This document shows positions 2,231-44,087 of a DNA stretch of 64,000 nt, piece by piece. Within the stretch, counting starts at the first letter, position 1, and the number at the start of each line of letters is the position of its first letter. The translations under genes were made by a program, and so were the position numbers. The stretch comes from a virus. Where the stretch lies: IMG/VR virus record IMGVR_UViG_3300045988_183986, one strand, 5' to 3'. The notes under the pieces were generated by a model. It was given only the letters and a program-made list of their open reading frames with translations, was not told the DNA's origin and made no database searches.

Positions 2231-3016
2231 TTAGCTATTTTCTTCGATGCACAATTCGCTGCTACGAATGTTTTCCAACCATTTTTCATCCATAACATTG
2301 CCAATACGATACTTCCTCTGGGATTCATAGGACCAGTCACAACCGACGACAACATCACCGATGGCATTCAGATACAGTTCTCCATCAGTGATATTGATTC
2401 CGGCTTCATTTCCCGGTTTACAATCTCTCTCATATTCAATCACAAGTTCCGAAACTATAGGTTCTCTCTTTAGAATCTGATTTGCGTTGATAGTTTTGGC
2501 ACGACCCTCGTTAATGAGATATTGCTTGCGAAAATCCGTTACTTTATCATTACGATTATATCTCAAACCGCTAAGAATACTCGCACTTTCGCGGGGAATT
2601 TCTTCATGAAAATCATCGCTGCTGATACAAAGACCACACGAATAGTCATCCTTGTCATCGCAATAATTCCACCATTCGAGGCTCGCCAAAGCGAGTTCTA
2701 CCATCTTATCGACGGCTTTCCCGTTGGTTACCATATAAAAACTCCCAACGGAAATGTTTCGCTCTCTTACGGCGTTCAAAGTATAGCGAATAGCAGGAAT
2801 GTTCAAAGAAATTTCTCCACCCGTAAAGGTCAAGGAACTGATGTATCCTGCATTAGCAAAACTGTCAAGAAACGCATCGATATATCTTTCCTGAATATCG
2901 ACCGCCTCCGCATCACCACGCAAACAATGCGCACAGCACATATTACAGCGACGGGTAATCTCAATTACCACATCACATGCACTCGAAATATACATTCTAT
3001 TTACTCCTTTCATCAA
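2231..3016 (-). CDS. radical SAM domain protein
   Basis: N-terminal CNMCCAHC (CxxxCxxC 4Fe-4S/SAM cluster motif) followed by a TFTGGE glycine-rich SAM motif. 261 aa. Confidence 0.7.
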   Translation of the reverse strand: MMKGVNRMYISSACDVVIEITRRCNMCCAHCLRGDAEAVDIQERYIDAFLDSFANAGYISSLTFTGGEISLNIPAIRYTLNAVRERNISVGSFYMVTNGKAVDKMVELALASLEWWNYCDDKDDYSCGLCISSDDFHEEIPRESASILSGLRYNRNDKVTDFRKQYLINEGRAKTINANQILKREPIVSELVIEYERDCKPGNEAGINITDGELYLNAIGDVVVGCDWSYESQRKYRIGNVMDEKWLENIRSSELCIEENS

Positions 3017-3995: not shown

Positions 3996-4793
3996 TTACA
4001 GCAAACTCATCTCTGCACGATACGCATTGGCGTCGTAGCCCCAGATATTACAAGCAAAATCGATTGCTGCGTTACCTTTGCTGGGATAACCGTCGTCAAC
4101 AAAATCTCCTTTGCAAAGCGCATACCAGCCACAATTACTTCCGATATCCTCATCCGCATATTTTACACGAATATTGGCGTGTGGGAATTTACGGCTCAGT
4201 TCGACAATGGCGCATGCAGGTGTATTCCAAGGGGTTTTAAAATTGATGGCAATTTCCGTATCATTTATTCTACGGATATTCACATCAAAAACATCCCACT
4301 TTACGCCCCAGTTTGCGACACGCCAATAATACCATGAAGCATATCCATATTTTACGGCATTTTCCAAAGCACGCTCCGCTACAGTATCGAACTCTTCGAC
4401 ATTATAGGGGATACGTTTCAGGTTGATGAGTTTGCTATCTTTCACGTGTTCCAGTTTGGAGCGAGCTTCCGCAGCTTCCTTGCAAACACCAACCATATCT
4501 GATGCAGTAAGTTTTTCCTTCCTGTGCAGGAGAAAAGTTTCTCTGCAAATAGCCTTTCTTACGTTTTCCGGATACTTCTCCGGGTCAATTCCGTATTTAT
4601 TTACGGCCGCCCATGCGAGCATCCTGTCACATGGCGATACGATTTGCAGTGATTCCGGCATAGGAACAACAGACTGAAGCGAAAAATCTTTTTCGCCATC
4701 ATCGTCTTTTCCCTTGACACGATTCAGAAAATCCTCCAACTCTGCCTGAGAATTGAAAGAAACAGACATGATATTCATGATATTGTTTGCCAT
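3996..4793 (-). CDS. DUF1281 / Api92-like ferredoxin-like domain protein (mobile-element associated)
   Basis: Motifs VANWGVKWDVFD and ACNIWGYDA resemble the NWGTKWD signature of the DUF1281/Api92-like family. 265 aa. Confidence 0.5.
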   Translation of the reverse strand: MANNIMNIMSVSFNSQAELEDFLNRVKGKDDDGEKDFSLQSVVPMPESLQIVSPCDRMLAWAAVNKYGIDPEKYPENVRKAICRETFLLHRKEKLTASDMVGVCKEAAEARSKLEHVKDSKLINLKRIPYNVEEFDTVAERALENAVKYGYASWYYWRVANWGVKWDVFDVNIRRINDTEIAINFKTPWNTPACAIVELSRKFPHANIRVKYADEDIGSNCGWYALCKGDFVDDGYPSKGNAAIDFACNIWGYDANAYRAEMSLL

Positions 4794-6993: not shown

Positions 6994-7662
6994 TTATGCG
7001 AGCATGGGATATATTTCTTTCTTTACCGCCCTCATAAGAGCGGCAGCATGTGCGGCGTTTTGTGCATTGCCAACACCTGCGCGAGATATTTTTGGATTCA
7101 CACGCTCAATGAAATTTTTCTTATACGGGGCAGAAATGCTCCTTGCAGCATCGATAATTTGTTTCATGTTTTCAGCGTCGATTTTTTGCTGAACGCATAA
7201 TTTTTGTAACCGTGTGCAAAAAGCGTCTTTGTTGTCCCGTACAGAAGTAGAATGATTTTTTGTTTCTTTATGTGGGATGACTGCCTCACAGGCTATCCGT
7301 TTAACGCTTAACCCTTTACTGCACATGGTCTGAATAAGCCCGTCATATCCCTTGTCTGCCGACACGATGATATAATTGCTTTTCTTTCCTGTTGTGCAAA
7401 GACTACCAAGTTTAGCAACAACGTGGAAATCCATGCTGTTTTTCCCTGCATTAGAGACGCAGAACTCTACTTGGTTGACTGGGTACTTTGCCAGAAAAAC
7501 CTGCAATTCTTTAAGTGACATGTATGTGGCTTCCGGACCGATGAAGATAATCAGCTTGTCCTTTTTGGTTTTAAAATGCACTACATTTAGCCATTTCTTT
7601 TGGACATTCTCGGTATCTATTAGCCAAACGGTTCGAGTGCAGCTCACACATTTCACCCCCAC
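6994..7662 (-). CDS. NYN/LabA-like (PIN-like) domain protein
   Basis: VWLIDTENV near the N-terminus and IIVSADKGYDGLIQ later resemble the D...SxDxD acidic residues of LabA/NYN nucleases. Confidence 0.45.
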   Translation of the reverse strand: MGVKCVSCTRTVWLIDTENVQKKWLNVVHFKTKKDKLIIFIGPEATYMSLKELQVFLAKYPVNQVEFCVSNAGKNSMDFHVVAKLGSLCTTGKKSNYIIVSADKGYDGLIQTMCSKGLSVKRIACEAVIPHKETKNHSTSVRDNKDAFCTRLQKLCVQQKIDAENMKQIIDAARSISAPYKKNFIERVNPKISRAGVGNAQNAAHAAALMRAVKKEIYPMLA

Positions 7663-9104: not shown

Positions 9105-9422
9105 TTAATCTCTGTGATAGCGTTGCATCATACCGAACATAGCCGCAAGCGCCAATGCAAGGTAGATGTAAGTGTATCCCTTTTCAATCATGTTCAGAAT
9201 CACGATGGTAAAGCTCGAAAAAGCACCACAATAAAAAGCGGCACCAAGTTTATCGACCAAAAACATCAACATCTGGGCAACGACTGCCGCAGGAACAAGA
9301 AGCTTGAGACGCTTGGCCTCAATGATTCCGTCCCAGTCAAGAACAGCAATGAAGCTGGCTCCCATGCAGATGACCCAAACAAAAGCGAAAATAAGGGTTG
9401 CTGTGTCAAAAAAGTTACTCAT
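9105..9422 (-). CDS. small multi-TM membrane protein, paralog A
   Basis: ORF 9105..9437. Start MSNFFDTA with GGAGGT. Paralogous to 9478..9792; 3' ends share the nucleotide block atctgtgatagcg. Confidence 0.5.
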   Translation of the reverse strand: MSNFFDTATLIFAFVWVICMGASFIAVLDWDGIIEAKRLKLLVPAAVVAQMLMFLVDKLGAAFYCGAFSSFTIVILNMIEKGYTYIYLALALAAMFGMMQRYHRD

Positions 9423-9477
9423 ATCAGTTACCTCCAAAATTACTGATGGTTTACGGGTTTATGGACATCGAATCGCA

Positions 9478-9792
9478 TTATCTGTGATAGCGCTTTGTCA
9501 TGCCAAACATAGCTGCAATCATAATCGCCAAATATGCGTACAAATACAAGTTCTCAATCATTCCAAGAACTGAAATTGTAAGACTGGCGAACATACCGCA
9601 ATACAGAACAGCACCAATTTTTTTGATGATGAACAGCGTGGCTTGCGCAATGATGGCGACAACGAGAAAAACTTTGATGTATTTAGCCTCAAATAAACCA
9701 TCCCAATCGATGGCAAGGAAGATACAAGCCCCCACAGCGAGAGCCCAAACCAAAGCAGCAACAGATGCAACAGCGTCAAAGAAGCTTAACAT
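9478..9792 (-). CDS. small multi-TM membrane protein, paralog B
   Basis: ORF 9478..9807. Start MLSFFDAV. LAIDWDGLFEAKYIK matches AVLDWDGIIEAKRLK in the paralog. Confidence 0.5.
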   Translation of the reverse strand: MLSFFDAVASVAALVWALAVGACIFLAIDWDGLFEAKYIKVFLVVAIIAQATLFIIKKIGAVLYCGMFASLTISVLGMIENLYLYAYLAIMIAAMFGMTKRYHR

Positions 9793-9845
9793 AGCGAATA
9801 CCTCCATGTTTTAAATTAGGTTAATGTTCGGACATCTATATAAAC

Positions 9846-9883
9846 AGCAAAAAGCCGCCAATGGGACAATCCACTGGCGGCTC
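9846..9883 (-). terminator. leader terminator upstream of small membrane paralogs
   Basis: AGCCGCCAGTGGattgtcCCATTGGCGGCT + TTTTT on minus strand. Confidence 0.5.
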
Positions 9884-9971: not shown

Positions 9972-10943
9972 TCAGAAGACTTCGTCAAGTTTTGCACATA
10001 CAATAAAACGAGTATCGTAATTATCACTGCCTGAACAGGTGGACAAAATCAAAACCTTATCATTCAATCCAACTTCTGTGGCGTACTGATTGTAAGAGTA
10101 AGCTTTCATACTTGCAATCTCTGTCAGAAAATACGAATCATCCGGATTCGCAATGGTATAACTTGGGTCAATAGGATAATCGGCAACAGCAAAGATTTTC
10201 CATCGTGTCTGTTGTTCACCCAGAGTAAGATAAATATACCGATGTTCTTTTGCAAAGTTGACATCGCGGAAGTATTTCAAAACACTGAATTTCTTGTGCA
10301 TACTGTTTCCGTTGCTATGTCCAAAAATAACAGTTACTCTGTACATATCATCAACATTGCTGACATTCCATTCGGAGGGAACAAAATAAGCGCCCCAGAT
10401 ACTTTCCCTATCGAACTCATTGTGAGTCAGATAATAATCATCGTCTGTGGGATGCTGCAAAATTGGCTCATCTGTAACATCAACGCCGGGAACAGTTAAG
10501 TAACCAACGGTGTTTTTGGAATACGCTGGCTTTGGTGTCGGTTCCGGTTCTGAATCACTCTCACTTGAATTAGAAGACGGGATAAGAATCGAGGGAGTAG
10601 AAACAGGTTCTTCTACATCATCGGAGATGTTTCCTGTCTCATATGCAGGGATATGATAGTAATCATACGCTTTCCATCCAATATAGCCAATCATGGCAAT
10701 AAGAACGATGCAGATTACGACCAACAAAACTGTCCAGATGGAAAATCGCCGTTTCTCTTTGTCCTCTGACGCGTCCATCGCATCCATCGATTCATTGTCA
10801 TCCTCGTCATGACTTGCCTTTTGATGAGGGAAGTTTTCACCAGTTCCATCATCCTCATCATTTGGAATGTAATTGTACGCACCAAGTTCCTGCTCGAAAT
10901 GTTCTTCTTCAGGCAGTGGTGGAATAATAGGTGTTTTTGCCAT
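9972..10943 (-). CDS. srtB: class B sortase
   Basis: N-terminal TM anchor. Conserved His in IFGHSNGNS, catalytic Cys in LILSTCSGSD (TLxTC-like), Arg in YDTRFIVCAKL. Confidence 0.7.
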   Translation of the reverse strand: MAKTPIIPPLPEEEHFEQELGAYNYIPNDEDDGTGENFPHQKASHDEDDNESMDAMDASEDKEKRRFSIWTVLLVVICIVLIAMIGYIGWKAYDYYHIPAYETGNISDDVEEPVSTPSILIPSSNSSESDSEPEPTPKPAYSKNTVGYLTVPGVDVTDEPILQHPTDDDYYLTHNEFDRESIWGAYFVPSEWNVSNVDDMYRVTVIFGHSNGNSMHKKFSVLKYFRDVNFAKEHRYIYLTLGEQQTRWKIFAVADYPIDPSYTIANPDDSYFLTEIASMKAYSYNQYATEVGLNDKVLILSTCSGSDNYDTRFIVCAKLDEVF

Positions 10944-10954
10944 AATACATCACC

Positions 10955-12118
10955 TTATTCAGCTGCGGCAGACCGCTCGTACACATCAATGCAGTAGTTG
11001 CCCATAATCTTGTTGTACATGCACTCCTGTGCCAAAGGACCTGCCCCATAGGTATCAACGGCGTTATCATAGTTACTGCCAATATAAGCTTTTACTTCAT
11101 CGACAGACGGTTTATAGTCCTGTTCCTCTGCCAGATACTGCGCAACAAGGCTCAGTAAAACATTTTCTTCCGTCTGACTACGAAGACTTTCTGAATACTC
11201 CTCCGAGGTCTTATAATTGCTGTATGTCTGAACGAATGTCTCCAAGTCCATATTGTAGGCAGTTGCTTCGTTTTCGACATACTTCAAGTTGGTTTCAAGA
11301 CTCAGGTTGACAAGGTCTGTCGTATCCTTTTTGAGTTTTACATTGTCAATGAAATACTGTTCAATCTCATTCTGAATCTTATTCATACGAAGATTCTCTT
11401 CAACATATTCACGAAGCAGGTCTACTGTAGTTACAGCAGTGCCGTCTTGCAGCTTGTAGCCACTCATGATACCGGCAACATCAGCATCTGTCATGCTATA
11501 TTGAGAAATCTTATTAAGCGTTACATGGAAAACAGCTTCCTTGTTGGCGAGCTCGATAGTCTGCTCGCCTGTGGTTCTATCTGTTGTACTGCTATATCCA
11601 TCAGGGAATGTTACTGTGACGTCAAACGAATCCCCCGTGTTATGCCCGACGATTTGCTCTTCAAATCCGTCAATAAAGGTATTGGAACCGAGTTCCAAAT
11701 CGTAGTCTTCTGTTGTTCCACCGGTAAAAGCAACACCATCAACCGTACCCTCGTAGTTAATGTTCACAACATCGCCTTCCTGTGCGGCGCGGTCTGTTAC
11801 CTCTGTCGTCAGCTTGTAATTGGACTGAAAATAATCCAACTCATTTTGAATCTCCTCGTCTGTAACGGCGTATACATCTTTGCTGACCGTATACTTCTTA
11901 TAATCCTTGGGCATTTTTATGTACTTGGATGCAGTCACATCACGAAAATACCCGTCATCATCAAGACCGAGGTCATACTCAACAGCGGAAGCTGTTTCGG
12001 AGGTGGCTGTTTCCGCAGTCTCAGATGCACTTGTATCGGCCGTATCTTTACTGCACGCGGTCAATGCAATACATGCAGCACTGATGACCGCCAGAATCAT
12101 TTTTGCGTTTTTCTTCAT
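10955..12118 (-). CDS. trigger-factor-like FKBP-type PPIase lipoprotein (lacks ribosome-binding N-domain)
   Basis: Start MKKNAKMILAVISAACIALTACS (signal peptide + lipobox LTAC) with AAGGAG RBS. GDVVNINYEGTVDGVAFTGGTTEDYDLELGSNTFIDGFEEQIVGHNTGDSFDVTVTFPDGY closely follows the trigger-factor PPIase domain pattern. C-terminal ~200 aa are TF C-domain-like. Confidence 0.65.
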   Translation of the reverse strand: MKKNAKMILAVISAACIALTACSKDTADTSASETAETATSETASAVEYDLGLDDDGYFRDVTASKYIKMPKDYKKYTVSKDVYAVTDEEIQNELDYFQSNYKLTTEVTDRAAQEGDVVNINYEGTVDGVAFTGGTTEDYDLELGSNTFIDGFEEQIVGHNTGDSFDVTVTFPDGYSSTTDRTTGEQTIELANKEAVFHVTLNKISQYSMTDADVAGIMSGYKLQDGTAVTTVDLLREYVEENLRMNKIQNEIEQYFIDNVKLKKDTTDLVNLSLETNLKYVENEATAYNMDLETFVQTYSNYKTSEEYSESLRSQTEENVLLSLVAQYLAEEQDYKPSVDEVKAYIGSNYDNAVDTYGAGPLAQECMYNKIMGNYCIDVYERSAAAE

Positions 12119-12132
12119 GAAAATCTCCTTTA

Positions 12133-12170
12133 TAAAAAGACCCCGGCAGACAGGTTGCCTACCGGGGCAG
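12133..12170 (-). terminator. GC-rich hairpin + T-run after secE-like gene
   Basis: CCCCGG...CCGGGG stem followed by TTTTT, then RBS of lipoprotein gene. Confidence 0.45.
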
Positions 12171-12174
12171 TATT

Positions 12175-12426
12175 TTAAACGAACAGGAACGGGACATGAA
12201 GCAGCAGGGCATAAGCTGCATCCATGATACCAATGATAACGGCAGACACAGCGCTCACAGCAAGAACTGCTCCGGTTCGACGGAACGTATTGCGCATACT
12301 CGGCCAAGTCACATTTTTGGGTGCAACCAGATTGTGCAGTTTCTTGGGCGTGCTCTTGATGAAAGAAGGAATTGCCTTCACGAAATTCACGATAGCCATT
12401 CCAATCTTTTTCAGTTTCTTTTTCAT
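12175..12426 (-). CDS. secE: SecE-like small translocon subunit
   Basis: Start MKKKLKKIGM. KNVTWPSMRNTFRRTGAVLAVSAVSAVIIGIMDAAYALLL matches the bacterial SecE pattern (K.V.WP...E..R.T..V......F.LD). ATG overlaps the upstream gene stop (ATGA). Confidence 0.6.
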   Translation of the reverse strand: MKKKLKKIGMAIVNFVKAIPSFIKSTPKKLHNLVAPKNVTWPSMRNTFRRTGAVLAVSAVSAVIIGIMDAAYALLLHVPFLFV

Positions 12427-12677
12427 GCCGCACCTCCTACTCCGGTTACTACGAACATGATGATTGCGATAACAAGCAGAATAGCTGTACATACAGCAAC
12501 CAGTTTATTTGCGGACGTTTTCGTGCTGTCTTTAGCACTCGAGCGCATTGTATCACTGATTCCGGTGATAACACTAAGACTGTTCTTGTCAGCCTTATCC
12601 ATGGAAAGCGTAACCGCACAAACCAGAACAGAAACCAGCAGAATCAAGATGCACAGAATGATTTCATAAATTGCCAT
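12423..12677 (-). CDS. secG: SecG-like two-TM protein
   Basis: 84 aa. TM1 + polar loop (NSLSVITGISDT) + TM2, resembling SecG topology. Translationally coupled between SecY and SecE paralogs. Confidence 0.45.
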   Translation of the reverse strand: MAIYEIILCILILLVSVLVCAVTLSMDKADKNSLSVITGISDTMRSSAKDSTKTSANKLVAVCTAILLVIAIIMFVVTGVGGAA

Positions 12678-12692
12678 TGTGTTGCCCTCCCG

Positions 12693-14033
12693 TCAATTCA
12701 AGAAACCCTTGTGATGGCGAACCACCAAATGGCTGTTAAGAGAATCGATAACTTCAAGCGTAACACCTGTGACAATCAACAGACTGGTACCGCCAAAGTG
12801 CATATTCAGACCTGTAACCGCAGTTGCCAAGATAGGCACACATGCAATAACCGAAAGAACAAATGCTCCCGAACCGGCGAGAGAATGGCAAGCATTGCGC
12901 AAATAATCACTGGTAGCTTTGCCTGCTCGAATACCGGGGATACTGCCGCCGTTCTTGCGCAGGTTGTTTGCCATTTCGATGGGGTCGAATGTGATGTCGA
13001 TGTAGAATAAGTTGAATGCGAAAATCAGGGCTACATACGCAACATCATAAATCCAATTCCGCGAATTCCAAGATGCCAGCGCCATATACAGGCTGGGGTG
13101 CTTGTTGTAATCGAGGAACATCGTCACGAGAGACGGCATACTGCAAATGGTGGACGAGAAAATAATAGGCATAACACCCGACATAATCAGTTTGATGGGG
13201 ATATAACTGGACTGACCAGTGGATGCTTTGTTCCCTACATTTTTACCGGCATACTGAACAGGAACGCGGCGCTCTGCATCGCTTGCGAAAACGACATAGA
13301 AGGTGGCCACCAAAACAAAGAGGATGACGCCGGGAATCATCAGATAATACCACCATCCATTTTCTTTGCCCATTGCAATAGAGTTCTGGAACAACGAGAT
13401 GACAGCATCCCATCTGGAAATGATACCGGTAAAGATGATAAGGGAAATACCGTTGCCAATACCTTTTTCGTCAATCAGCCATCCAAGCCAGATGACGATT
13501 TGAGAACCAGCAGTCAGAATGGCAATAACAGTAATGGCTTCCACGACCTGCGAAATGCCGGAAGTGTATTTCATCGCACCGTAGTTCTTCATAATAAAGA
13601 AGTACCCGATAGCTGTTACGACCGCCAAACCACAACCAACATACTGCGTGATTTTATTGATTTGCTTCTGCCCGCCGATGTCCTTGCTGATTTCTTCCAG
13701 TTTCGGAATCGCAACAGTCAAAAGCTGGATGATGATGCTTGCGTTGATGTATGCAGATACGCCAATCGCAAATACCGCACACTGAGAAAGTGCGCCACCG
13801 GAAACCAGATTGTAATAATCCAGTACAGAGGTGCTTCCGAACATAGTCTGAAGCGCAGCGGTGTTTACGAACGGAATCGTAATACCGCAACCCAGACGAT
13901 AAATCAGAAGACAAAGGATGGTGAAGAGAATCTTGTTGCGAACATCATCCACCATCAGCTTCTGAAAGATGGTGCTGTTCGAATAAGACTTTTTGAGTTT
14001 CGGCTTTTTCGCCGGATTTTTAATGTTGTCCAA
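12693..14033 (-). CDS. secY: preprotein translocase SecY paralog
   Basis: 446 aa, 10 TM. ILFTILCLLIYRLGCGITIPFVN...SGGALSQCAVFAIGVSAYINASIIIQLL is the canonical SecY N-terminal signature. Not flanked by ribosomal-protein/adk genes. Confidence 0.85.
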   Translation of the reverse strand: MDNIKNPAKKPKLKKSYSNSTIFQKLMVDDVRNKILFTILCLLIYRLGCGITIPFVNTAALQTMFGSTSVLDYYNLVSGGALSQCAVFAIGVSAYINASIIIQLLTVAIPKLEEISKDIGGQKQINKITQYVGCGLAVVTAIGYFFIMKNYGAMKYTSGISQVVEAITVIAILTAGSQIVIWLGWLIDEKGIGNGISLIIFTGIISRWDAVISLFQNSIAMGKENGWWYYLMIPGVILFVLVATFYVVFASDAERRVPVQYAGKNVGNKASTGQSSYIPIKLIMSGVMPIIFSSTICSMPSLVTMFLDYNKHPSLYMALASWNSRNWIYDVAYVALIFAFNLFYIDITFDPIEMANNLRKNGGSIPGIRAGKATSDYLRNACHSLAGSGAFVLSVIACVPILATAVTGLNMHFGGTSLLIVTGVTLEVIDSLNSHLVVRHHKGFLN

Positions 14034-14057
14034 TGCTTACTCCTTCCGCGACTGAGA

Positions 14058-14333
14058 TTATCGAGCAAAGAAAGCAACGATGATTCGCATCAGAAAGGCT
14101 ACAACGGCCAACTTCGTTGCAAGCCACATGAACCAATCGAGTTTGTCGATACCTTCGTCGAATACATTTGTTGCGGCAGCATCTTTTTTGTTACTGTCGC
14201 AATCCCCGTCAACATGGTTTTTCTTGATTTTGTTGCGATTAAGCACAAACAAAGTTCGAAACAAAGCCCATGTTGCAATACAGAATCCGTATACGATTAG
14301 AAGCTCGATACAGAAACTGTGCAAAGACGACAT
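14058..14333 (-). CDS. small membrane protein, hypothetical
   Basis: 91 aa, two hydrophobic segments. Immediately upstream of SecY paralog in same operon. Confidence 0.4.
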   Translation of the reverse strand: MSSLHSFCIELLIVYGFCIATWALFRTLFVLNRNKIKKNHVDGDCDSNKKDAAATNVFDEGIDKLDWFMWLATKLAVVAFLMRIIVAFFAR

Positions 14334-15010
14334 TAAGCGGATGCGCCGTTGGCGTCAGGAGTCGTATTGGAGGCGGTCTCGGCAACGGCCTCTACCGGAG
14401 TTTCCGTGACAGTCTCTGCGGGAGAAGTGATATCCCCGGTGATTGTGGGGACGTTGGCATCTTCTGCGACCGACTCATTGACGGGCGCTTCAATAACCGC
14501 ATCCTTGACTCCATCAGCAGTCACTTTCTTTGCTGCGATTTTTGCGAAGTGCTCATTGCGCTTTTCACGGCAAGCCTTGCAGCGGGTGGGGAGCTTGTAG
14601 TCATGGACGACATACCAGTACAGCTCGCGATTGGTAAACTGCAGCTTCTGACCGCAATCTGCGCAGGTGTCTTCCAGACCGATGTTATCCAGCCCGCGCT
14701 TCACGAAGTCGCGATGAATTTTGCGGCATTCCGGGCAGCGGTTCGGCAGAGAATAACCGTGACTCTCGAAGAAATCGCGGTCACGATTGGTGATGTCGAA
14801 TTCATGACCGCAGTCAACGCACTTGCGGGTCTCAAACACCTCATTGCTCTTTGCATCAGCTTCCTTGCGAGCTTCATCCTCTGCGCGGTGTTTTGCGAAA
14901 TCGTCACGCATACGACACTCGCGGCACAGCACCTCGCTCTCATTGGCGGTGCTGAACGGCTTGTTGCACTTCTCACAGGTCTTGCGGAACTTCTTTGCTG
15001 CATCTTTCAT
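14333..15010 (-). CDS. triple zinc-ribbon protein, hypothetical
   Basis: Three CxxC-(N15-22)-CxxC units (CEKC..CREC; CVDC..CPEC; CADC..CKAC), each followed by an FTN/ITN motif. Acidic C-terminal tail. Confidence 0.5.
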   Translation of the reverse strand: MKDAAKKFRKTCEKCNKPFSTANESEVLCRECRMRDDFAKHRAEDEARKEADAKSNEVFETRKCVDCGHEFDITNRDRDFFESHGYSLPNRCPECRKIHRDFVKRGLDNIGLEDTCADCGQKLQFTNRELYWYVVHDYKLPTRCKACREKRNEHFAKIAAKKVTADGVKDAVIEAPVNESVAEDANVPTITGDITSPAETVTETPVEAVAETASNTTPDANGASA

Positions 15011-15053
15011 GGTTTAAGTCTCCTTTATGGTAAAAAATTAAAATAATGATTGA

Positions 15054-15569
15054 TTAGGCGTTGGGACCAGAAAAAGAATCGATAATTTCATCAACGTGGA
15101 CGTTCAAGTCGGACTTGTCATCATCTTTCTTGGCGGGCTGTTTTACAGGAACAACGATATCAGGCTCATTCTTCTTTTCCTCCGCCGCCTTTTCTTCAAC
15201 AGGCTTCTCTGCGGATTTATCCTTGGCCTCAGTGACCTCGGACGCACTATCGGAATCCACCTTGCCGGATTCATCCTTACCGGCATCAGGATTCGCCTCG
15301 GTTGCCTTATCAGTATCCTTTTTCGTCTCATCATGCTTGCGTTCTACGCGGATGACATGAACGGCAGCCACGGGCGCGTGATGAATATCATCGATGCGCT
15401 CATCACAACCGCAGCACTCATCACAGTCATCACAATCGTCGTCATCATAAAGATAACCGTCATCCTCCAACTCTTTGATGACCTCGTTCTTCACATACTT
15501 GGTCGTGAGTTTCAGGGCAACGGCTGCAACAGTGGCGGCACCAATAACGGACAGAATGTTCTTCTTCAT
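15054..15569 (-). CDS. N-terminally anchored acidic protein with DDDDCDDCDECCGCDE cluster
   Basis: 171 aa. N-terminal hydrophobic segment. Asp/Cys-rich metal-binding-like cluster. K/E/D-rich tail. First gene after class A promoter at 15610..15646. Confidence 0.45.
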   Translation of the reverse strand: MKKNILSVIGAATVAAVALKLTTKYVKNEVIKELEDDGYLYDDDDCDDCDECCGCDERIDDIHHAPVAAVHVIRVERKHDETKKDTDKATEANPDAGKDESGKVDSDSASEVTEAKDKSAEKPVEEKAAEEKKNEPDIVVPVKQPAKKDDDKSDLNVHVDEIIDSFSGPNA

Positions 15570-15609
15570 AAATTTCTCCTTTGACTAAAAAGCAATGTTT
15601 CGCTTGGAA

Positions 15610-15646
15610 TATTTATATTATACCACATAAATATAATGTGGTCAAT
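15610..15646 (-). promoter_or_regulatory. class A promoter: TTGACC-N17-TATAAT with TGTGGTATAATATA
   Basis: Minus-strand reading TTGACCacattatatttatgTGGTATAATATA. Drives the 15569->12175 operon. Confidence 0.6.
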
Positions 15647-15862
15647 ACAAATTGCGAATAAAAAAATGCCCCGCCGAAGCAAGGCACGTAAAATATCAGA
15701 AGTGTCTTATCAGATTGCGCCGTAAAACCCCTTGTTTTAGCTATGGGGATATAAGGCGCAGTGAAACTTAAGTTGTAATGTTTACAAATCGCACAAGTAT
15801 TGAATGGCGAGCTGTGATATAATAAATCAAAAAACTTCTCAACGGCAAAAGGATAAAATGGG

Positions 15863-16966
15863 ATGACATTTCAAAAGGGTGTAAAATTTAGAATCTACCC
15901 AAACCGGGAGCAGCGCAATCTGATTGACCGCACTCTCGGTTGCAGCAGACTCATTTACAATAAAGGTCTTGCCATGCGGGAGGACGCTTTCAAAAGCGGG
16001 GAAAAGTGCGGCTACAAGCAAACTTCTGCTATGCTGACAGCGCTCAAGCAGGATGCGAACTACGCGTTTCTCAAAGAGGTGGATTCCATTGCTTTGCAGC
16101 AAGCGCTGCGAAACCTTGATGCCGGATACACAAACTTTTTCGAGCATAGAGCTGCACATCCAAAATTCAAAAGCAAAAAAAGCGCCAAACAATCATACCG
16201 CACACTCAATATTGATAACGGTATACGCATTTCTAATAAGCGCATTCACTTACCGAAAATCGGTTGGGTAAAAGTTCATCAGTCTATGGAGATTGGCGCA
16301 ATTCACAACGCAACAGTAGCACGCACAGCCACCGGTAAATATTTCGTAGTTCTTAATGTGGAATATGACCCTCAGCCTATGCCAAACAACGGTTGTGTAG
16401 TAGGCATTGATGTTGGACTCAAAGAATTCTATTCCGATAGTAACGGTACTGTGGTTAATAACCCCAAATACTTGGAGAAAAAAGCCAAAAAACTTGCTCG
16501 CGAACAGCGGCGTTTGGCTCGCAAACAGAAAGGCTCACATAATCGTGAAAAGCAGCGTATAAGAGTCGCTGCCGCCCACGAAAAGATTGCTAATCAACGA
16601 AACGATTTCCTTCAAAAACAGTCTACTATGCTGGTGCGTGAAAATCAAACCATCTGCATCGAAGACCTTAATGTAAAGGGAATGCTTCGTAATCATAAAC
16701 TTGCAAGAGCTATTTCCAGTGTTTCGTGGTCGTCTTTCTTTGGCATGCTGGAGTACAAAGCCTATTGGTACGGTTGTACAGTAATTCGTGTACCTACATT
16801 CTATCCGAGCAGCCAAACATGCAGTTGCTGCGGCTATAAGAATGTGGCTGTCAAGAACCTCAGCATCCGTCAATGGGAATGTCCGTCTTGTCACACGGTT
16901 CACAACCGCGATAAAAACGCTGCCGTTAATATTTTGCATAAAGGGCTTGAGCAAAAGTCCGCTTGA
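15863..16966 (+). CDS. tnpB: IS200/IS605-family transposase accessory protein TnpB (RuvC-like, RNA-guided nuclease family)
   Basis: [34 protein letters not shown]-terminus. C-terminal zinc finger [27 protein letters not shown]. Confidence 0.85.
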
Positions 16967-24208: not shown

Positions 24209-25168
24209 TTAAATTTCACCGCTCATGGTCAGCTTTGCACGAGCCATGATTTCATATCCTTTTGCATTTGCGGTTACATCCGTCAAGAAGAAAAGGTTCT
24301 TGGTGTCAATGGCTCGCTCGATGCTTTCGCGCATCATAGCAGAACCACCGCCCATAAAGATGAAATAGGATGTTTTGAAGTCGTCCTTGATTTTTTCGGA
24401 AATCGTACGAATCAATGCTGTTGCATAATTGTCTGCGGTTTCCTTGGCAATTTTCACGGCGTTTTCATCGACCAGCATGTTGTTGTTCCCTGCAAGGATT
24501 GCCTCAGCCATGTAGTCATCGACCGACAAGGAACAATGGACACGCAGCTCGCTCTCGACAGTGCTCAGGAGTTCAATGACTCCACGGTCATAGCTTTCGC
24601 AGAAAGAAAGGTCCGGAGCATAAGTGTTGCCACGACCAGAGAAACGAATCACATCCGTGGTATACCCGCCGATGTCTACGACATAAGAACGGGGATAGCG
24701 CTTGATTTCCTTCTGAATCTCGCTTGCTGCCGTAATAGAAAAGCCCTGAGGATAGACAAAGACATGCTTGACAGTAATCTCAAACGGGATATCTTTGTAC
24801 ATGAAATTGATGAGTTTCCCGCTTTTGCCGAAATACTCATCATACTTCGCTTTCAGGGACATATGCTGCGGGGGCAAGCCCATCGCGAGGCATACATCGT
24901 ATTTGTAGAATTTCTGATTGGGATACTTCTTTATAAGGTTCTTTGCTACGGCAATCAGCGTCAGCAAAAAGTAAGTATCATCCTTCGTCTTATCCTGCTG
25001 ATAAGGCGTGCGGCTGTCATTGAGAGAATAATACTTCCCCATATAGCACATCGTCTCTCCCTTGATAGCCGGTTCAGTCGTACCGTGACGAACAAGACCA
25101 GTGGGAAACGGCTCACAGCCAGGCGTCTTCATTGCCTTGTTTCCGGTATCTACTCCAATAATCTCCAT
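24209..25168 (-). CDS. parM: actin-like segregation ATPase ParM/StbA family
   Basis: ORF 24209..25468. Start MEIIGVDTGNKAMK with GGAGGA RBS (phosphate-1 motif). DIGGYTTDV (phosphate-2/adenosine motif). Confidence 0.7.
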   Translation of the reverse strand: MEIIGVDTGNKAMKTPGCEPFPTGLVRHGTTEPAIKGETMCYMGKYYSLNDSRTPYQQDKTKDDTYFLLTLIAVAKNLIKKYPNQKFYKYDVCLAMGLPPQHMSLKAKYDEYFGKSGKLINFMYKDIPFEITVKHVFVYPQGFSITAASEIQKEIKRYPRSYVVDIGGYTTDVIRFSGRGNTYAPDLSFCESYDRGVIELLSTVESELRVHCSLSVDDYMAEAILAGNNNMLVDENAVKIAKETADNYATALIRTISEKIKDDFKTSYFIFMGGGSAMMRESIERAIDTKNLFFLTDVTANAKGYEIMARAKLTMSGEI

Positions 25169-25279
25169 AAAAAATCCTCCGAACGAGTCGCAATATAGTT
25201 GAAAGTACGAATTTTGGGATACTCTGCGTGATAAAATATAAGTGTCTACCAGATAACAATGGGACTCACTGACTGATGT

Positions 25280-25390
25280 ATAGCGGTTGTTAAAACGGAA
25301 AGAACAACTAATATACAACTGCCTGTTGTTATCATGATACCACACATGCAGTTGTCCAGCAACGAACTTTTGTTCGCATAGACAACAAAA
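25280..25390. promoter_or_regulatory. cluster of GTTGT/ACAAC inverted repeats (candidate parC centromere / divergent operator region)
   Basis: GTTGTTaaaacggaaagAACAAC, ACAACtgcctGTTGT, GTTGtccagCAAC, gACAACa within ~110 bp between parM (minus) and the XRE gene (plus). Confidence 0.45.
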
Positions 25391-25406
25391 AAGAAAGGAG
25401 TTATTT

Positions 25407-25637
25407 ATGCCATCCACCTTTGATACCATGGTAGGAAAGCGAATCAAAAAGCAACGAATGGAAATCAATTACAGCCAAGAACAGTTGGCGGCAAGCACGA
25501 ATTGTTCCTATCGCTGCATCCAAAAATGGGAGTCAGGAAAGACGATGCCGCGAGCGCAGATGCTATGTAATTTAGCAAAAGCCTTACATGTTTCGTCTGA
25601 CTGGCTGCTGGGTATTTCCAATGACAGGAACGGTTAA
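25407..25637 (+). CDS. XRE-family HTH transcriptional regulator
   Basis: 76 aa. INYSQEQLAASTNCSYRCIQKWESGKTMP is a classic Cro/CI-type HTH. AAAGGAG RBS. Confidence 0.7.
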   Translation: MPSTFDTMVGKRIKKQRMEINYSQEQLAASTNCSYRCIQKWESGKTMPRAQMLCNLAKALHVSSDWLLGISNDRNG

Positions 25638-29036: not shown

Positions 29037-29555
29037 TTAAATAATCGAGAACTTACGCTTTTTGTTTGTGAACTCAACAATCATAGAAGGACGACGACTG
29101 CCGATAGTCTCTTTCCGATTCTCAGAATCAATGAACAGATAAGGGTTCGTCATCTTAATTCTGGCAGGCAGAAACTTTACCCTTACTCCCTGCTGTCCAT
29201 AAATGTATCTCTGGAACCAGTCAGAGTCCGTAGAAACGGGTAAAAGCATGACGACCGTGGTATTCTTTTTCCTTGACTCCTCGTACGCCTTGCGCACCCA
29301 CAACTTAAAGGACTTATGCCCTGTCGGGGGATTGCAAAATACTGTTTCACCTTTCCAGTCCTGCAAGAGACCATCGACACGCTCCGTGTAATATTTCTTG
29401 CATTTATGATTTTTGTCCGATGCAGCCGCATCCAGAGTGAAACCGTATTCCTTGTTCAGGTCATCGAAAAGCCCCTGAGGCGTCTCCCATTCCTGTTTGT
29501 GAGTATTCTTGACTGCATAAGTCTTATCCGTTGTTTTCGTTTCTACGCTGTTCAT
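29037..29555 (-). CDS. phage/plasmid-type DNA N6-adenine methyltransferase (Dam family)
   Basis: EWETPQGLFDDLNKEYGFTLDAAAS followed by VFCNPPTG (NPPY-like catalytic motif). Typical of orphan Dam MTases of mobile elements. Confidence 0.7.
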   Translation of the reverse strand: MNSVETKTTDKTYAVKNTHKQEWETPQGLFDDLNKEYGFTLDAAASDKNHKCKKYYTERVDGLLQDWKGETVFCNPPTGHKSFKLWVRKAYEESRKKNTTVVMLLPVSTDSDWFQRYIYGQQGVRVKFLPARIKMTNPYLFIDSENRKETIGSRRPSMIVEFTNKKRKFSII

Positions 29556-31223: not shown

Positions 31224-32759
31224 TTATTTTATATCGCTTGCGTTTTCGTCAGGTTCGATGTGCGCATTGTCATCAGCCTTCTCGATTGCAGGCAAACCGT
31301 GAATGTTGATATTGCGGTCGGTCTTAGCATTGATACTGTTCGCACGAACGATATCGGCCATATCGATACCGGTAGCTTCCTTGACAGTCTGCATGGTCTG
31401 TGCCATCAGCACGGGAACATTCCCAGACACGCCGGAAACGCCAGATGCATCGCCGCCGATGATAGATACCTTGTCGATTGCGGACAAGGGCTGAGCCACA
31501 TTCTTAGCAATATCAGGCAGGACCTTGATAAGCATTTCAGCGACAGCGGCATCGTTGTACTGCTTGTAAGCCTCCGCCTTTTGCTTCATAGCTTCGGCTT
31601 CAGCAATACCCTTCTGACGGATAGCCTCAGCTTCTGCCTTACCTACAAGGGCAATACCTTCGGCTTCCTGCTGCTTTGCAAATTTCTGAGCCTCAGCAGC
31701 GCGTTCGGCTTCGTATTTTTTTGCTTCTGCTTCTTTTTGGCGTTTATACAATTCGGCATCCGCAGCTTTGCGAACCTCTGCATCCAGTTTTCTCTGCTGA
31801 ACCTCGGCTTCCTGTGCAGCAAGGTCGACCATCTTTTTCTGCTTTGCGATTTCCGCATCAGCTTCGGCTTCTTTGATTTCCTTGGCGCGAAGATTTGTCT
31901 GAATCTGTCCTGCAGCGTTGGCATCAGCAGCAGCCTTGTCAGCCTCGGCCTTCAATTTGGCCTTTGCCAGCTGCAATTCATTGTTGCGCTGTGCAATAGC
32001 AGTCTGGGCTTCAACTTCCTTTTCATTGGCTGCCATTTCAGCGTCAGCCTTTGCGCGAGCAATATCACGAGCGGCTTCGGCACGAGCAATCTCTGCGCGT
32101 TTCTTGACGGCTTCTTCCTGCTCAATACCAATAGCCTCAATGACGCCGTGATTGTGACCTTGCGCATCGACGGCGTCTTTTACATCCTGCACATTGAAGG
32201 TCACAACTTCAAGACCCATTTTTGCAAGGTCAGGACGGGCATTTTCGATTACTGACAGCGCCATTTGTTTACGATTTGTGAGAATCTGGTCAACCGTCAT
32301 ATCCGAAACGATTTCGCGCAGGTTGCCTTGCAAGACATCATTTACTTTGTCATTGATGCCTTTTTCGTCCATGCCAAGGAAGTTCGAAATAGCCGACTGC
32401 TGACGACCCGTAATATATTCCTTGACATCCTTTGCACCAGATGCCTGAACCTCAGAGTCGAGAACAGTAGAATTATCGCTGTATACCTGAATCGTTACAA
32501 CAGAATCAATCCAGAGCGATACGCCTTCTTTTGTCTTGACACCCGTCTCAGGGGTTTTGACATCAATTTTCAGAAGACGCATATTCAGCTTATCTGCACG
32601 CTGCAGCACAGGGATGACAAATGTACCCTTTCCACAAACGACCTTGGGCTTTTTCAAGCCGAATCCAGTCACAACGATGGCTGCTGTGGGAGGCGCTTTT
32701 TTGTAGCATGTGAATGCGAACAAAACAAACAATACGACAATGATGATTCCTAAAAACAT
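31224..32759 (-). CDS. flotillin / SPFH (band 7) family protein
   Basis: N-terminal TM. SPFH core followed by long Ala/Glu/Lys-rich heptad region (AEAEA/KAEA repeats). 511 aa, typical of FloA/YqiK-type flotillins. Confidence 0.8.
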   Translation of the reverse strand: MFLGIIIVVLFVLFAFTCYKKAPPTAAIVVTGFGLKKPKVVCGKGTFVIPVLQRADKLNMRLLKIDVKTPETGVKTKEGVSLWIDSVVTIQVYSDNSTVLDSEVQASGAKDVKEYITGRQQSAISNFLGMDEKGINDKVNDVLQGNLREIVSDMTVDQILTNRKQMALSVIENARPDLAKMGLEVVTFNVQDVKDAVDAQGHNHGVIEAIGIEQEEAVKKRAEIARAEAARDIARAKADAEMAANEKEVEAQTAIAQRNNELQLAKAKLKAEADKAAADANAAGQIQTNLRAKEIKEAEADAEIAKQKKMVDLAAQEAEVQQRKLDAEVRKAADAELYKRQKEAEAKKYEAERAAEAQKFAKQQEAEGIALVGKAEAEAIRQKGIAEAEAMKQKAEAYKQYNDAAVAEMLIKVLPDIAKNVAQPLSAIDKVSIIGGDASGVSGVSGNVPVLMAQTMQTVKEATGIDMADIVRANSINAKTDRNINIHGLPAIEKADDNAHIEPDENASDIK

Positions 32760-33068: not shown

Positions 33069-33123
33069 TCAATTAAAAAGATGAGCAAGATACTTCTCGC
33101 TCGCCTTCTGCTTTTCTGTGTTG

Positions 33124-34212
33124 TTAGATTTCTTCGCTGCCTTCGCTATCTTCTTCTTTGCGACTATCCTTAGAGAACCCAACAAAACCGCATGCGCCTG
33201 CGGAAATTCCGAAGATTACTGCCATGATGGGCATGATGAGTCTGTTTCGATATACAGCGCCTACAATGAAATTGGCGTTAGCTACCTGCTCCAATACATA
33301 GTGTGCAATCGCGCAAATCGTAAGTTCAGAAGCGTTACCGAACGATTCATCAAGACCGATGCTGAGCAACGACATGGAATAGGTTGCGCTGGCTACATAC
33401 TTGATTTCGATAGGTGCAGCAGTTTCATATACAGCTACATAGCTCTTGCCGGTATTCTTTTGACCGTAGAAAGACAGTGTGCGGTAGAATCCGCCTTCTG
33501 CCCTTGCTACTGGGTCGCTTGTCCACTTACCGCCTGTGATTTTATAGGAATCACTGTTCAGACCGATGGCAGACATCAAATCGCTCTTATAACCATCCCA
33601 AAGCGGTGTGGCGGGATTGTATGTGTGGACTTTTCCGAGATAGACATATGCGGTGGCACCTTCCGGAATTACGACTTGTCCATCAATCGTGAAATCGACC
33701 CATGTATCGGTGTCCTCGACTTCATTGACCTCTTTCAGAACGCCTTCAACTTCCGTACCATCATCAAGAGTGAAGGTCTTGTTTTGCGGGGCGTTCGGTT
33801 TCTTGTCTTCGCCCTTGTACTCTACTGTCATTTCTGTGGGAATATCGGCTTGTTCTTCCGTGTACTGAACATCTTCGAGCGGCAATTCATACTGTTCTCC
33901 GCCCAGCGTTACAGTATAGGTCTGAGGAACTTCTTTTACAGTCAAATCCGTATATTCTACGGTTTCTTGATACTTGGTATTGAGTTCCCTTTGCTGATAA
34001 TCTACGCTGTCTTCGTCGAGGACATAGGTATTACCGTTCTCCTCAATTTCCTTCGGAAGAGGATTGGCATCGGCTTCTTCTTGGTCCTTGTAATTGAACT
34101 CACGAGTGATATCAATATCAATATCACCAAGAGAAGTCAACGCTTGTGTAGAAATGCATCCTACGCAAAGCAGCGCACTTACAAAAGCAAGCACTCTCAT
34201 TATATTCTTCAT
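33124..34212 (-). CDS. secreted/membrane-anchored surface protein, hypothetical
   Basis: ORF 33124..34329. Likely start MKNIMRVLAFVSALLCVGC (signal peptide). C-terminal hydrophobic segment IMAVIFGISAGACGFVGF. Confidence 0.5.
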   Translation of the reverse strand: MKNIMRVLAFVSALLCVGCISTQALTSLGDIDIDITREFNYKDQEEADANPLPKEIEENGNTYVLDEDSVDYQQRELNTKYQETVEYTDLTVKEVPQTYTVTLGGEQYELPLEDVQYTEEQADIPTEMTVEYKGEDKKPNAPQNKTFTLDDGTEVEGVLKEVNEVEDTDTWVDFTIDGQVVIPEGATAYVYLGKVHTYNPATPLWDGYKSDLMSAIGLNSDSYKITGGKWTSDPVARAEGGFYRTLSFYGQKNTGKSYVAVYETAAPIEIKYVASATYSMSLLSIGLDESFGNASELTICAIAHYVLEQVANANFIVGAVYRNRLIMPIMAVIFGISAGACGFVGFSKDSRKEEDSEGSEEI

Positions 34213-34271
34213 AGCTTTTTTTGGCGTCTTAGCAGCTTGTCTGCCTGTACGCCGCCTCCTTTCGAATTCTC

Positions 34272-34306
34272 CTTTTATTGTATCTACTTTGCAGCAAATA
34301 GCAAAG
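34272..34306 (-). promoter_or_regulatory. class B promoter (TTGCTA-tTTGCTGCAAAGtaga-TACAAT)
   Basis: Contains the conserved TTGCTGCAAAG spacer. Overlaps upstream terminator. Confidence 0.5.
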
Positions 34307-34337
34307 AAAAAAGCCGAGCGGCTTATCACCGCTCGGC
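34304..34337 (-). terminator. rho-independent terminator
   Basis: GCCGAGCGGtgataaGCCGCTCGGC + T-run on minus strand after 34352..34912. Confidence 0.55.
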
Positions 34338-34351
34338 ATCCCCATCACATA

Positions 34352-43943: not shown

Positions 43944-44087
43944 CATGTTAGTTGCCCTCCTAATAATGTGAGTGTTCTGTGGTTTTACCACAGCCGGATT
44001 TATATACACCCTTACCTACTCCCTAGTGTGCAGCCTCGATTGTAGATAAGAAAGTATATCAAAACACAAGCAATCAAATTGCATATT

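Follow-up and report, generated by a model that had tools for sequence, protein, structure and literature searches.

The core protein translocon is normally seen as immovable housekeeping machinery, and its genes are dispersed in bacterial chromosomes: secY belongs to the spc operon, secE neighbours nusG, and secG lies apart from both. It is rare for a mobile element to encode a full SecYEG set. Here we describe a candidate set of this kind, a secY-secG-secE trio followed by genes for a chaperone-like lipoprotein and a sortase, within a 64,000-nucleotide stretch of DNA filed as a virus (IMG/VR record IMGVR_UViG_3300045988_183986; "the window" below means this whole stretch), which also encodes two giant surface proteins.

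The closest described elements are the Hodor elements, conjugative megaplasmids of the human gut that were long misfiled as huge phages (Yuan et al., bioRxiv Feb 2026, PMC12934698). They average 357 kb in size, have been found in more than 9,000 samples, and encode Rep_3, ParA/ParB/ParM (including ParM/StbA partition genes), VirB4/VirD4/VirB6, a MOBH-like relaxase, and frequently TnpB, with no terminase except where a prophage has inserted (PMC12934698). A "surface-associated module" with the order hyp-SecY-SecG-SecE-trigger factor-sortase B has already been named in these genomes, and the elements fall into two deeply divergent groups whose short list of common genes includes the Sec genes, sortase B, and two giants of approximately 2,642 and 7,309-7,704 amino acids (aa) that carry a signal peptide, MBG/S-layer-type repeats, and a cell-wall sorting signal (PMC12934698). 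Metatranscriptome data indicate that SecY/G/E are co-transcribed, while the trigger factor and sortase genes are co-transcribed separately (PMC12934698). Export of the giants through the plasmid's own Sec pore was proposed in the same work, and SecA is never listed there (PMC12934698).

The window comes from an approximately 350-kb extrachromosomal element, probably a conjugative megaplasmid, of human-gut Bacillota, and its Sec locus matches the secretion part of the surface-associated module. The same gene set in the same order occupies positions 9972-15010, and nothing essential differs. The giants match in size class and signals, as do TnpB, a ParM-like gene, and guanine-plus-cytosine (GC) content; in both cases one transcription unit holds the sec genes and another the chaperone and sortase genes, and relatives have been filed as viruses. 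The initial annotation, made from the window alone, had instead assumed a bacterial chromosome with a housekeeping secY elsewhere and had taken the arrangement to be new. The chromosomal frame was wrong, as near-identical copies lie on extrachromosomal contigs of 240-389 kb, and the claim of novelty is superseded by the February 2026 description of the module (PMC12934698). The discovery is already known; the arrangement itself is real and unusual. To the published account (PMC12934698) the present analysis adds a predicted extracytoplasmic location of the chaperone, the failure of SecY2 models, the failure to find SecA motifs, purifying selection on the genes, and the presence of the trio without chaperone or sortase in lineages of 52-71% SecY identity.

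Relatives of the window SecY with 89-99% identity were found only in metagenome assemblies, where a single 90% cluster holds 1,455 member sequences, and a scan of 185,579 GTDB species genomes for SecY relatives returned no match. ENA/Logan contigs carrying a related SecY recur at sizes of approximately 270-382 kb. Among the IMG/VR contigs, those of 345,980 and 240,696 bp harbour 99%-identical copies, and those of 389,222 and 247,423 bp harbour 90%-identical ones; the 389,222-bp relative matches the upper Hodor size quoted (PMC12934698). The module region has a GC content of 43.7% in the window lineage versus 48.4-49% in the 90% lineage, and from these values the window is probably Hodor group G2 and the 90% lineage G1. 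With the element extrachromosomal, the housekeeping Sec genes and SecA therefore belong to the Bacillota host. The nearest chromosomal SecYs, from the Gemmiger/Subdoligranulum group, are 47-50% identical and sit in a normal L15-SecY-Adk-Map context. Together with the chromosomal homologue of the lipoprotein chaperone, they hint at the Faecalibacterium/Gemmiger/Subdoligranulum group as the source of the host. A tblastn search of PLSDB and INPHARED gave SecYs of no more than 45% identity, and the best "plasmid" match, OY725837.1, was rejected as a relative because it is a housekeeping SecY region. With its SecY in a normal ribosomal S5-L15-SecY-Adk-Map context, that record (Subdoligranulum variabile "plasmid 3", 116 kb) seems to be a piece of chromosome or a replicon given the wrong label, and the same may hold for 12 secY-bearing C. 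difficile single-cell "plasmid" records (96-150 kb).

The filing of relatives in IMG/VR as viral genomes of 240-389 kb raises the alternative that the element is a jumbo phage whose Sec genes act during infection, for example in membrane remodelling or in the export of phage proteins. Most of its genes are ORFans, and distant contigs with the trio carry phage-like replication genes (RNase H, RecJ, NrdD, and a sigma factor). We nevertheless judge this very improbable. A PHROGs scan of ten large window proteins matched only the actin-like ParM/Alp7A partition protein (24209-25468, minus strand), sortase-anchored adhesins suit a resident replicon better than a lytic phage, and the reported gene content comprises Rep_3, ParA/ParB/ParM, VirB4/VirD4/VirB6, and a MOBH-like relaxase, with no terminase save in an inserted prophage (PMC12934698).

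All genes of the sec locus lie on the minus strand and run from approximately 15.65 kb to 9.85 kb in two tightly packed transcription units. The first is preceded by a promoter-like site (TTGACC-17-TATAAT with an extended -10 TG; 15617-15645, minus strand; 11 of 12 positions match, making it the top-ranked site of the 7.7 kb scanned), which lies upstream of the first sec-operon gene and coincides with the outer coordinate of the initial annotation. A terminator-like hairpin is found just before this promoter (15666-15687, minus strand). The genes then follow in the order acidic protein, zinc-ribbon protein, a 91-aa open reading frame (ORF), secY, the SecG-like gene, and secE. secY and secG are separated by 15 nucleotides, with a GGGAGGG ribosome-binding site ahead of secG, and secG and secE overlap by ATGA, the secE ATG overlapping the secG stop. 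An intrinsic terminator-like hairpin (12140-12168, minus strand; a 13-bp stem with 8 GC pairs and a T-run) ends the unit. The second unit consists of the 387-aa lipoprotein gene (10955-12118) and the 323-aa sortase gene (9972-10943), with a further terminator-like hairpin 3' of the latter (9852-9883, minus strand). Because the terminator at 12168-12140 lies between secE and the chaperone/sortase genes, two transcription units are recognized rather than one.

This layout agrees with most of the initial annotation. The SecY, SecG, SecE, chaperone, and sortase genes and the genes upstream of them were all recovered on the minus strand where it had placed them, and gene order and coupling bear out its view that SecY, SecG, and SecE share an operon removed from the ribosomal (spc) context. 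It had also put the trio upstream of the lipoprotein and class B sortase genes, which is correct, although the terminator splits these into two units. Of the acidic Asp/Cys and zinc-ribbon proteins that it saw at the start of the operon, both are present, but the acidic protein is restricted to the 99%-identical lineage. The giants, which it had placed downstream of the operon along with the lipoprotein and sortase, are not there: their genes (35991-44009 and 44374 to beyond 64000) lie 22-50 kb upstream, on the same strand.

Both flanks of the locus carry additional small features. Just upstream of the sec promoter is a TnpB-only IS605-family element (segment 15711-17102; ORF 15863-16966, plus strand) whose product matches OrfB_IS605 (9.4e-30) and has a Cas12f1-like TNB domain. 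The segment, approximately 1.39 kb long, is present in the window and in locus L008 and absent from L007 and L009, which are otherwise 96-99% identical, and its insertion is therefore recent and polymorphic. Directly 3' of the sortase gene are two tandem paralogous genes for small membrane proteins of 110 and 109 aa (9105-9437 and 9478-9807, minus strand) with 48% mutual identity, found in the 99% lineage only and with no family assignment.

The secY gene (12693-14033; TTG start, GGAAGGAG ribosome-binding site) encodes a full-length housekeeping-type channel subunit of 446 aa. Its product matches PF00344 (E=8e-87), passes the equivalog model TIGR00967 (330.3 bits versus a cutoff of 253.6) with the full architecture of 10 transmembrane (TM) segments, and aligns end to end with the solved SecY chains 3dl8_G and 3din_C in the PDB. 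In the alignment, the pore ring reads V/I/I/I/I/I at the equivalents of E. coli I82/I86/I187/I191/I278/I408, for which an E. coli reference was used for residue numbering only. The plug region is conserved, as is the C5-loop arginine (R357; IPGIRAG) that contacts SecA and the ribosome. One clade-wide change is a Pro-to-Ala substitution in the conserved G-x-x-P-Y-I motif (GVSAYI). We considered whether the clade substitutions might produce a prl-like relaxed channel and rejected the idea, since only the Pro-to-Ala change is clade-wide, the IRPG-to-IRAG change being inconsistent across lineages, and this is too little for altered gating. A database SecY of 65% identity, P0084, was dropped as an assembly chimera of the window SecY and another SecY: approximately 200 N-terminal residues are identical to the window SecY and the rest resembles a different SecY, most likely a chimera in the public collection.

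The second and third subunits differ in how firmly they can be assigned. SecE (12175-12426) is a single-TM bacterial SecE of 83 aa with an NVTWP motif that passes both cutoffs (PF00584, 4.1e-08 and 33.5 bits versus 22.7; TIGR00964, 32.9 bits versus 27.55). The SecG-like protein (12423-12677), of 84 aa and with TM-loop-TM topology, aligns over the full length of both SecG models, yet scores below their cutoffs (PF03840, E=0.0024 and 18.4 bits versus 29.2; TIGR00810, E=0.00042 and 20.3 bits versus 30.85). Profile comparison thus upholds the SecY and SecE assignments of the initial annotation above cutoff and leaves the window SecG below it, with all five of the five SecG orthologues from related elements matching PF03840 (best 7.7e-07). 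The orthologues in lineages L016 and L099 also carry precomputed SecG matches. A profile built from five SecG-like orthologues matched no SecG among PDB sequences, and the call draws on Pfam and NCBIfam only, with position and topology that fit. We accept the 84-aa protein as a putative divergent SecG, the weakest of the three Sec calls.

A second SecY with small SecE/SecG-like partners and large surface proteins, one of which has a Ser/Thr-rich N-terminal region, could suggest a standard SecA2/SecY2 accessory locus that the window cuts off just short of its SecA2, Asp, and Gtf genes. This explanation is effectively refuted. The window SecY falls far below the SecY2 models (TIGR02920, 149.6 bits versus 249.6; NF009082, 147.6 versus 353) and passes the SecY model, so that by profile comparison the channel is of SecY type and not SecY2, and the small subunits appear to be relatives of true SecE and SecG, not of Asp4/Asp5. 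The 64-kb window has no SecA-sized ORF, the only ORFs above 600 aa being the two giants, and none of the SecA, Asp, or glycosyltransferase Pfam families was found among its dominant-strand ORFs of at least 150 aa and several plus-strand candidates. The same families were not found within 10 kb of the trio in seven related lineages. Both the distinction from the accessory system and the lack of SecA2, Asp1-3, and Gtf genes in view, as the initial annotation had them, are therefore sustained.

Across IMG/VR, the SecA motifs MAGRGTDI and RGRxGRQGDPG gave 78 and 29 contig matches, none of them Hodor-like, and on the 346-kb and 389-kb relatives, assumed to be near-complete, these two exact motifs were absent. 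Host SecA would then be the most economical motor for the channel, because the plasmid seems to be without a SecA of its own and the C5-loop arginine is intact. Separately, this search found dozens of "viral" IMG/VR contigs of 100-360 kb with exact SecA motifs (L020-L109), none related to the window; these are bacterial contamination or large elements that encode a SecA-like ATPase.

The first gene of the second unit encodes a trigger-factor-like lipoprotein of 387 aa with an FKBP peptidyl-prolyl isomerase (PPIase) domain (FKBP_C, 2e-16) and a C-terminal chaperone domain (Trigger_C, 2e-4). Its match to TIGR00115 (3.8e-50; 170.9 bits versus a cutoff of 180.2) covers model positions 108-371 of 410 only, and it aligns to trigger-factor residues 125-395 in PDB 8p7x. 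Since the match runs only from approximately residue 125 onward, the ribosome-binding N-domain is missing; in its place the N-terminus has a signal peptide whose LTAC lipobox is retained across three lineages, along with a Ser/Thr/Glu-rich linker. The conserved lipobox and the lack of a ribosome-binding domain would place the chaperone on the outer face of the membrane, acting after translocation. The protein should therefore be an extracytoplasmic foldase that is derived from trigger factor without functioning as one. A homologue of 380 aa and 39% identity to the chaperone is encoded on an F. prausnitzii chromosome (P0237, a 3.12-Mb contig). Proteins of this type are annotated as "trigger factor", and have a signal peptide and A-G-C lipobox, FKBP and Trigger_C domains, and no ribosome-binding domain, which suggests an uncharacterized family of extracytoplasmic trigger-factor-derived foldases in that bacterial group.

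The second gene of this unit encodes a predicted sortase of 323 aa with an acidic N-terminal tail, a TM anchor, and a catalytic domain in which the catalytic His (IFGHS), Cys (LSTCS), and Arg (TRFIV) are present; the GH, TC, and R motifs align with those of sortase B structures. All nine of its PDB matches are sortase B, including C. difficile SrtB (5gyj, 4ux7), with the best to 5b23 at 5e-12. The TIGR03064 match is below cutoff (5.9e-22; 78.1 bits versus 153.75), and no Pfam Sortase match was obtained at E<=1. The enzyme, which is conserved in lineages of 59-99% SecY identity, is by comparison predicted to be of class B, yet divergent.

The two giants are the putative clients of the module. 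The smaller one (35991-43946, minus strand) has 2,651 aa, a Sec signal peptide (MQKPRKRFLSAIVAVAMCLSQFAPVTAYA), five MBG_2 domains, and a C-terminus in which NYKTGVGF is followed by a TM segment and KKKK, a sorting-type signal. The larger one begins beyond the end of the window and extends to position 44374 on the minus strand; at least 6,541 aa are visible, and both the frame and the N-terminus run past the window end. Within its C-terminal 2,499 aa, which were scanned, there are 18 DUF11 stretches, and the protein also has DUF7507, CARDB, and MBG_2 repeats; it ends in NKKTGIGF, a TM segment, and HKRKK. Among the window proteins, only these two have a C-terminal sorting-type signal, and in both the tail continues as a long charged segment beyond the basic stop-transfer residues. 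The L001 and L016 lineages also encode a giant surface protein no more than 10 kb from the trio, and in L014 a large protein of at least 1,054 aa with a CAP domain lies near the trio and is cut by the locus end. In the N-terminal region of the 2,651-aa protein (43700-43946), the signal peptide is followed at once by a long low-complexity stretch rich in Ser, Thr, and Ala (SDSSATTPAPKSDVTDTASSASSDTSVTS...) that recalls O-glycosylated or stalk regions, and no glycosyltransferase was found in the window.

The trio is widely conserved. secY, secG, and secE are contiguous in at least seven lineages spanning 52-99% SecY identity, with intact reading frames in seven of them, and a core of zinc-ribbon gene, SecY, SecG, SecE, chaperone, and sortase is conserved in the lineages of 59-99% SecY identity. 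Relative to the 90% lineage, the ratio of nonsynonymous to synonymous substitution rates (dN/dS) is 0.049 for SecY, 0.108 for SecG, 0.131 for SecE, and 0.115 for the zinc-ribbon protein, at a synonymous divergence (dS) of approximately 1.2-2.2, that is, at synonymous saturation. The Sec and zinc-ribbon genes are thus under strong purifying selection. These data bear on the notion that host housekeeping genes were captured passively and that the trio is their functionless, decaying copy. Host fragments are common on mobile elements, and a polymorphic TnpB insertion lies just upstream, but we give this explanation almost no credence: one operon unites three genes that lie apart in chromosomes, no frame is broken in the seven lineages, dN/dS stays at 0.05-0.13 with synonymous sites saturated, and the genes are reported to be co-transcribed (PMC12934698).

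In a neighbor-joining tree, a single clade unites the element-borne SecYs and leaves out the housekeeping SecYs of Gemmiger/Subdoligranulum, a provisional placement because sampling was limited to the top matches of the search. All element-borne SecYs share a 2-residue deletion. The more distant members of the clade, L014 (SecY 70%), L016 (55%), L099 (52%), and L100 (approximately 50%), also have the trio, in mobile-element-like contexts. Next to the L016 trio are a bactofilin, a sortase with a Pfam match, and a protein of at least 2,419 aa containing a SpaA domain, and the neighbours in L099 and L100 are RecJ, RNase H, a sigma-70 factor, NrdD, RecG, NADAR, and Macro. These four may correspond to the "distant relatives" of which the Hodor paper speaks (PMC12934698), or they may be further undescribed giant elements.

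We hypothesize that in this Hodor-type module the plasmid SecYEG exports the plasmid's giants and works with a lipoprotein foldase and a sortase, a reading that we regard as fairly probable. From the sequence evidence, the plasmid SecYEG would insert into the host membrane and add Sec channels. Host SecA could then thread the two giant signal-peptide precursors through such a channel, each presumably occupying it for minutes. At the outer face, the trigger-factor-like lipoprotein would receive and fold the giants in a PrsA-like manner, as its domains and lipobox suggest, and the plasmid's class B sortase would anchor them to the wall at an x-[K/P]-T-G motif. Once displayed, the giants probably serve cell contact or plasmid spread. 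With its own kit for export, folding, and anchoring, the plasmid could make giant display independent of the Sec capacity and compatibility of the host. It is from co-conservation that we infer which proteins use the channel, that host SecA drives it, that the sortase anchors the giants, and what purpose the giants serve.

The initial annotation had likewise proposed a dedicated translocon for the giants, driven by housekeeping SecA. This is compatible with all findings and is the same as the published proposal (PMC12934698); "dedicated" is unproven, because a canonical SecY makes extra general capacity equally compatible. The main rival is accordingly that the plasmid supplies additional SecYEG as a general booster of capacity or compatibility, for its whole secretome and membrane proteome or for life in diverse hosts. 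We consider this a real if less than probable alternative. The housekeeping-type SecY with its canonical residues, the transcriptional separation of the sec operon from the chaperone and sortase genes, and the many other membrane or secreted ORFs of the window all fit with it, as does the persistence of the trio in L099 and L100 without chaperone or sortase and with no giant within 10 kb. It accounts less well for the nearby giants in L001 and L016 and for the presence of Sec genes, sortase B, and giants in the small gene set common to both Hodor groups (PMC12934698). Booster activity would partly overlap with export of the giants instead of excluding it.

Several points weigh against our preferred reading, giant export by the plasmid's SecYEG. 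First, the link between channel and giants is one of correlative co-occurrence, and in this window the giants lie at least 22 kb from the sec operon. Second, SecY looks like an ordinary general-purpose channel, with nothing in its sequence that points to client specialization, and the window SecG protein itself is below curated thresholds. Third, L014, L099, and L100 keep the trio without chaperone or sortase, L099 and L100 having no giant within 10 kb, and the trio may therefore serve a more general role than adhesin export. Fourth, the SecA test consisted of two exact motifs on contigs assumed to be near-complete, which a very divergent motor would escape. Finally, the assignment to Hodor, probably G2, rests on matching descriptions and GC content.

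The proteins encoded upstream of secY include one further conserved member of the module. The zinc-ribbon/treble-clef protein (14333-15010, minus strand), a cytosolic protein of 225 aa and the "hyp" of the Hodor paper, matches zf_Tbcl (2.4e-10) and has three CxxC...CxxC units and a disordered acidic tail. In every lineage whose SecY identity is 59-99%, its gene directly precedes secY. The family, which comprises 20 clusters, is restricted to these elements, and it has no match in the 185,579 GTDB species genomes. A Foldseek search of the PDB with an AlphaFold2 model (predicted local distance difference test score, pLDDT, 72.5; core above 90) gave nothing at E<=0.001, the top rows being generic zinc fingers. 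The protein could be a new cytosolic coupling or targeting factor that hands multi-thousand-residue clients to the plasmid channel. In a broader form of this idea, the trio would be the hallmark of a wider, largely undescribed superfamily of Bacillota giant elements, the zinc-ribbon protein the coupling factor of the Hodor branch, and the whole kit a portable, host-independent machine for export, folding, and anchoring and not just additional copies of housekeeping genes; we offer this joint proposal as speculation and think it unlikely to hold in full.

The two other upstream proteins are not conserved parts of the module. The acidic protein (15054-15569, minus strand; 171 aa) has a TM helix at its N-terminus, a DDDDCDDCDECCGCDE cluster, and an acidic tail; the only loci in which tblastn detects it are L007-L009, which are 99% identical, and it belongs to no Pfam or NCBIfam family. 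The 91-aa ORF (14058-14333, minus strand) has two hydrophobic segments, and its ATG overlaps the zinc-ribbon stop. It is specific to the 99% lineage and of uncertain reality, being absent from the 90% and 59% lineages, in which the gap between the zinc-ribbon gene and secY is approximately 85 nucleotides.

The remainder of the window consists mostly of ORFans, and its annotated genes fit a large plasmid backbone. Besides the partition protein these are, all on the minus strand, a small radical-SAM protein (2231-3016), a DUF1281_C (Api92-like) protein (3996-4793), a PIN7/NYN nuclease (6994-7662), a Dam-type N6-adenine methyltransferase (29037-29555), and a flotillin/SPFH protein (31224-32759). 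Two opposite-strand ORFs, 33118-34377 (plus strand, 419 aa) and 33124-34329 (minus strand, 401 aa), overlap almost completely; neither has a Pfam match, and the minus-strand ORF has no PHROGs match.

Compared with housekeeping SecYEG, the plasmid trio is alike in that SecY and SecE pass equivalog models, SecG gives a weak full-length match, and the pore ring, plug, and C5 loop are conserved. The plasmid channel would thus be expected to conduct ordinary signal-peptide substrates with SecA. It differs in that the housekeeping genes are dispersed on the chromosome, whereas the plasmid genes form one operon on a mobile replicon, and in a SecY that is 47-50% identical to the nearest chromosomal SecY and has the 2-residue deletion and the Pro-to-Ala change in G-x-x-P-Y-I. 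The accessory Sec systems of streptococci and staphylococci offer a second likeness: a second channel, small SecE/SecG-like partners, and very large wall-anchored presumed clients. Unlike those systems, which have SecA2, Asp1-3, Gtfs, SecY2, and serine-rich-repeat glycoproteins, none of which was found at the plasmid locus, the module is borne on a plasmid and has DUF11/MBG proteins as its putative clients.

The two genes of the second unit have counterparts of their own. PrsA and the module chaperone are both lipoproteins with a PPIase in a chaperone scaffold, placed for proteins emerging from SecYEG at the membrane-wall interface (PMC12445088). PrsA is a parvulin in a SurA-like NC domain, whereas the module chaperone combines an FKBP PPIase with the trigger-factor C-domain, which would make it an analogue and not a member of that family. 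C. difficile SrtB recognizes (S/P)PxTG, and the client motifs NYKTG and NKKTG, and QAPTG in a relative, end in x-T-G as do clostridial SrtB substrates. The module sortase differs from clostridial SrtB in its long acidic cytoplasmic N-terminal extension and its sub-cutoff score. If our preferred reading, export of the giants by the plasmid's own SecYEG, is true, the module would be a second, independently evolved route for the export of giant adhesins beside SecA2/SecY2, through which a broad-host-range plasmid could make a costly surface phenotype host-independent. The elements are very common in human gut metagenomes, and their surface module may affect cell-cell contact and gene flow in the gut.

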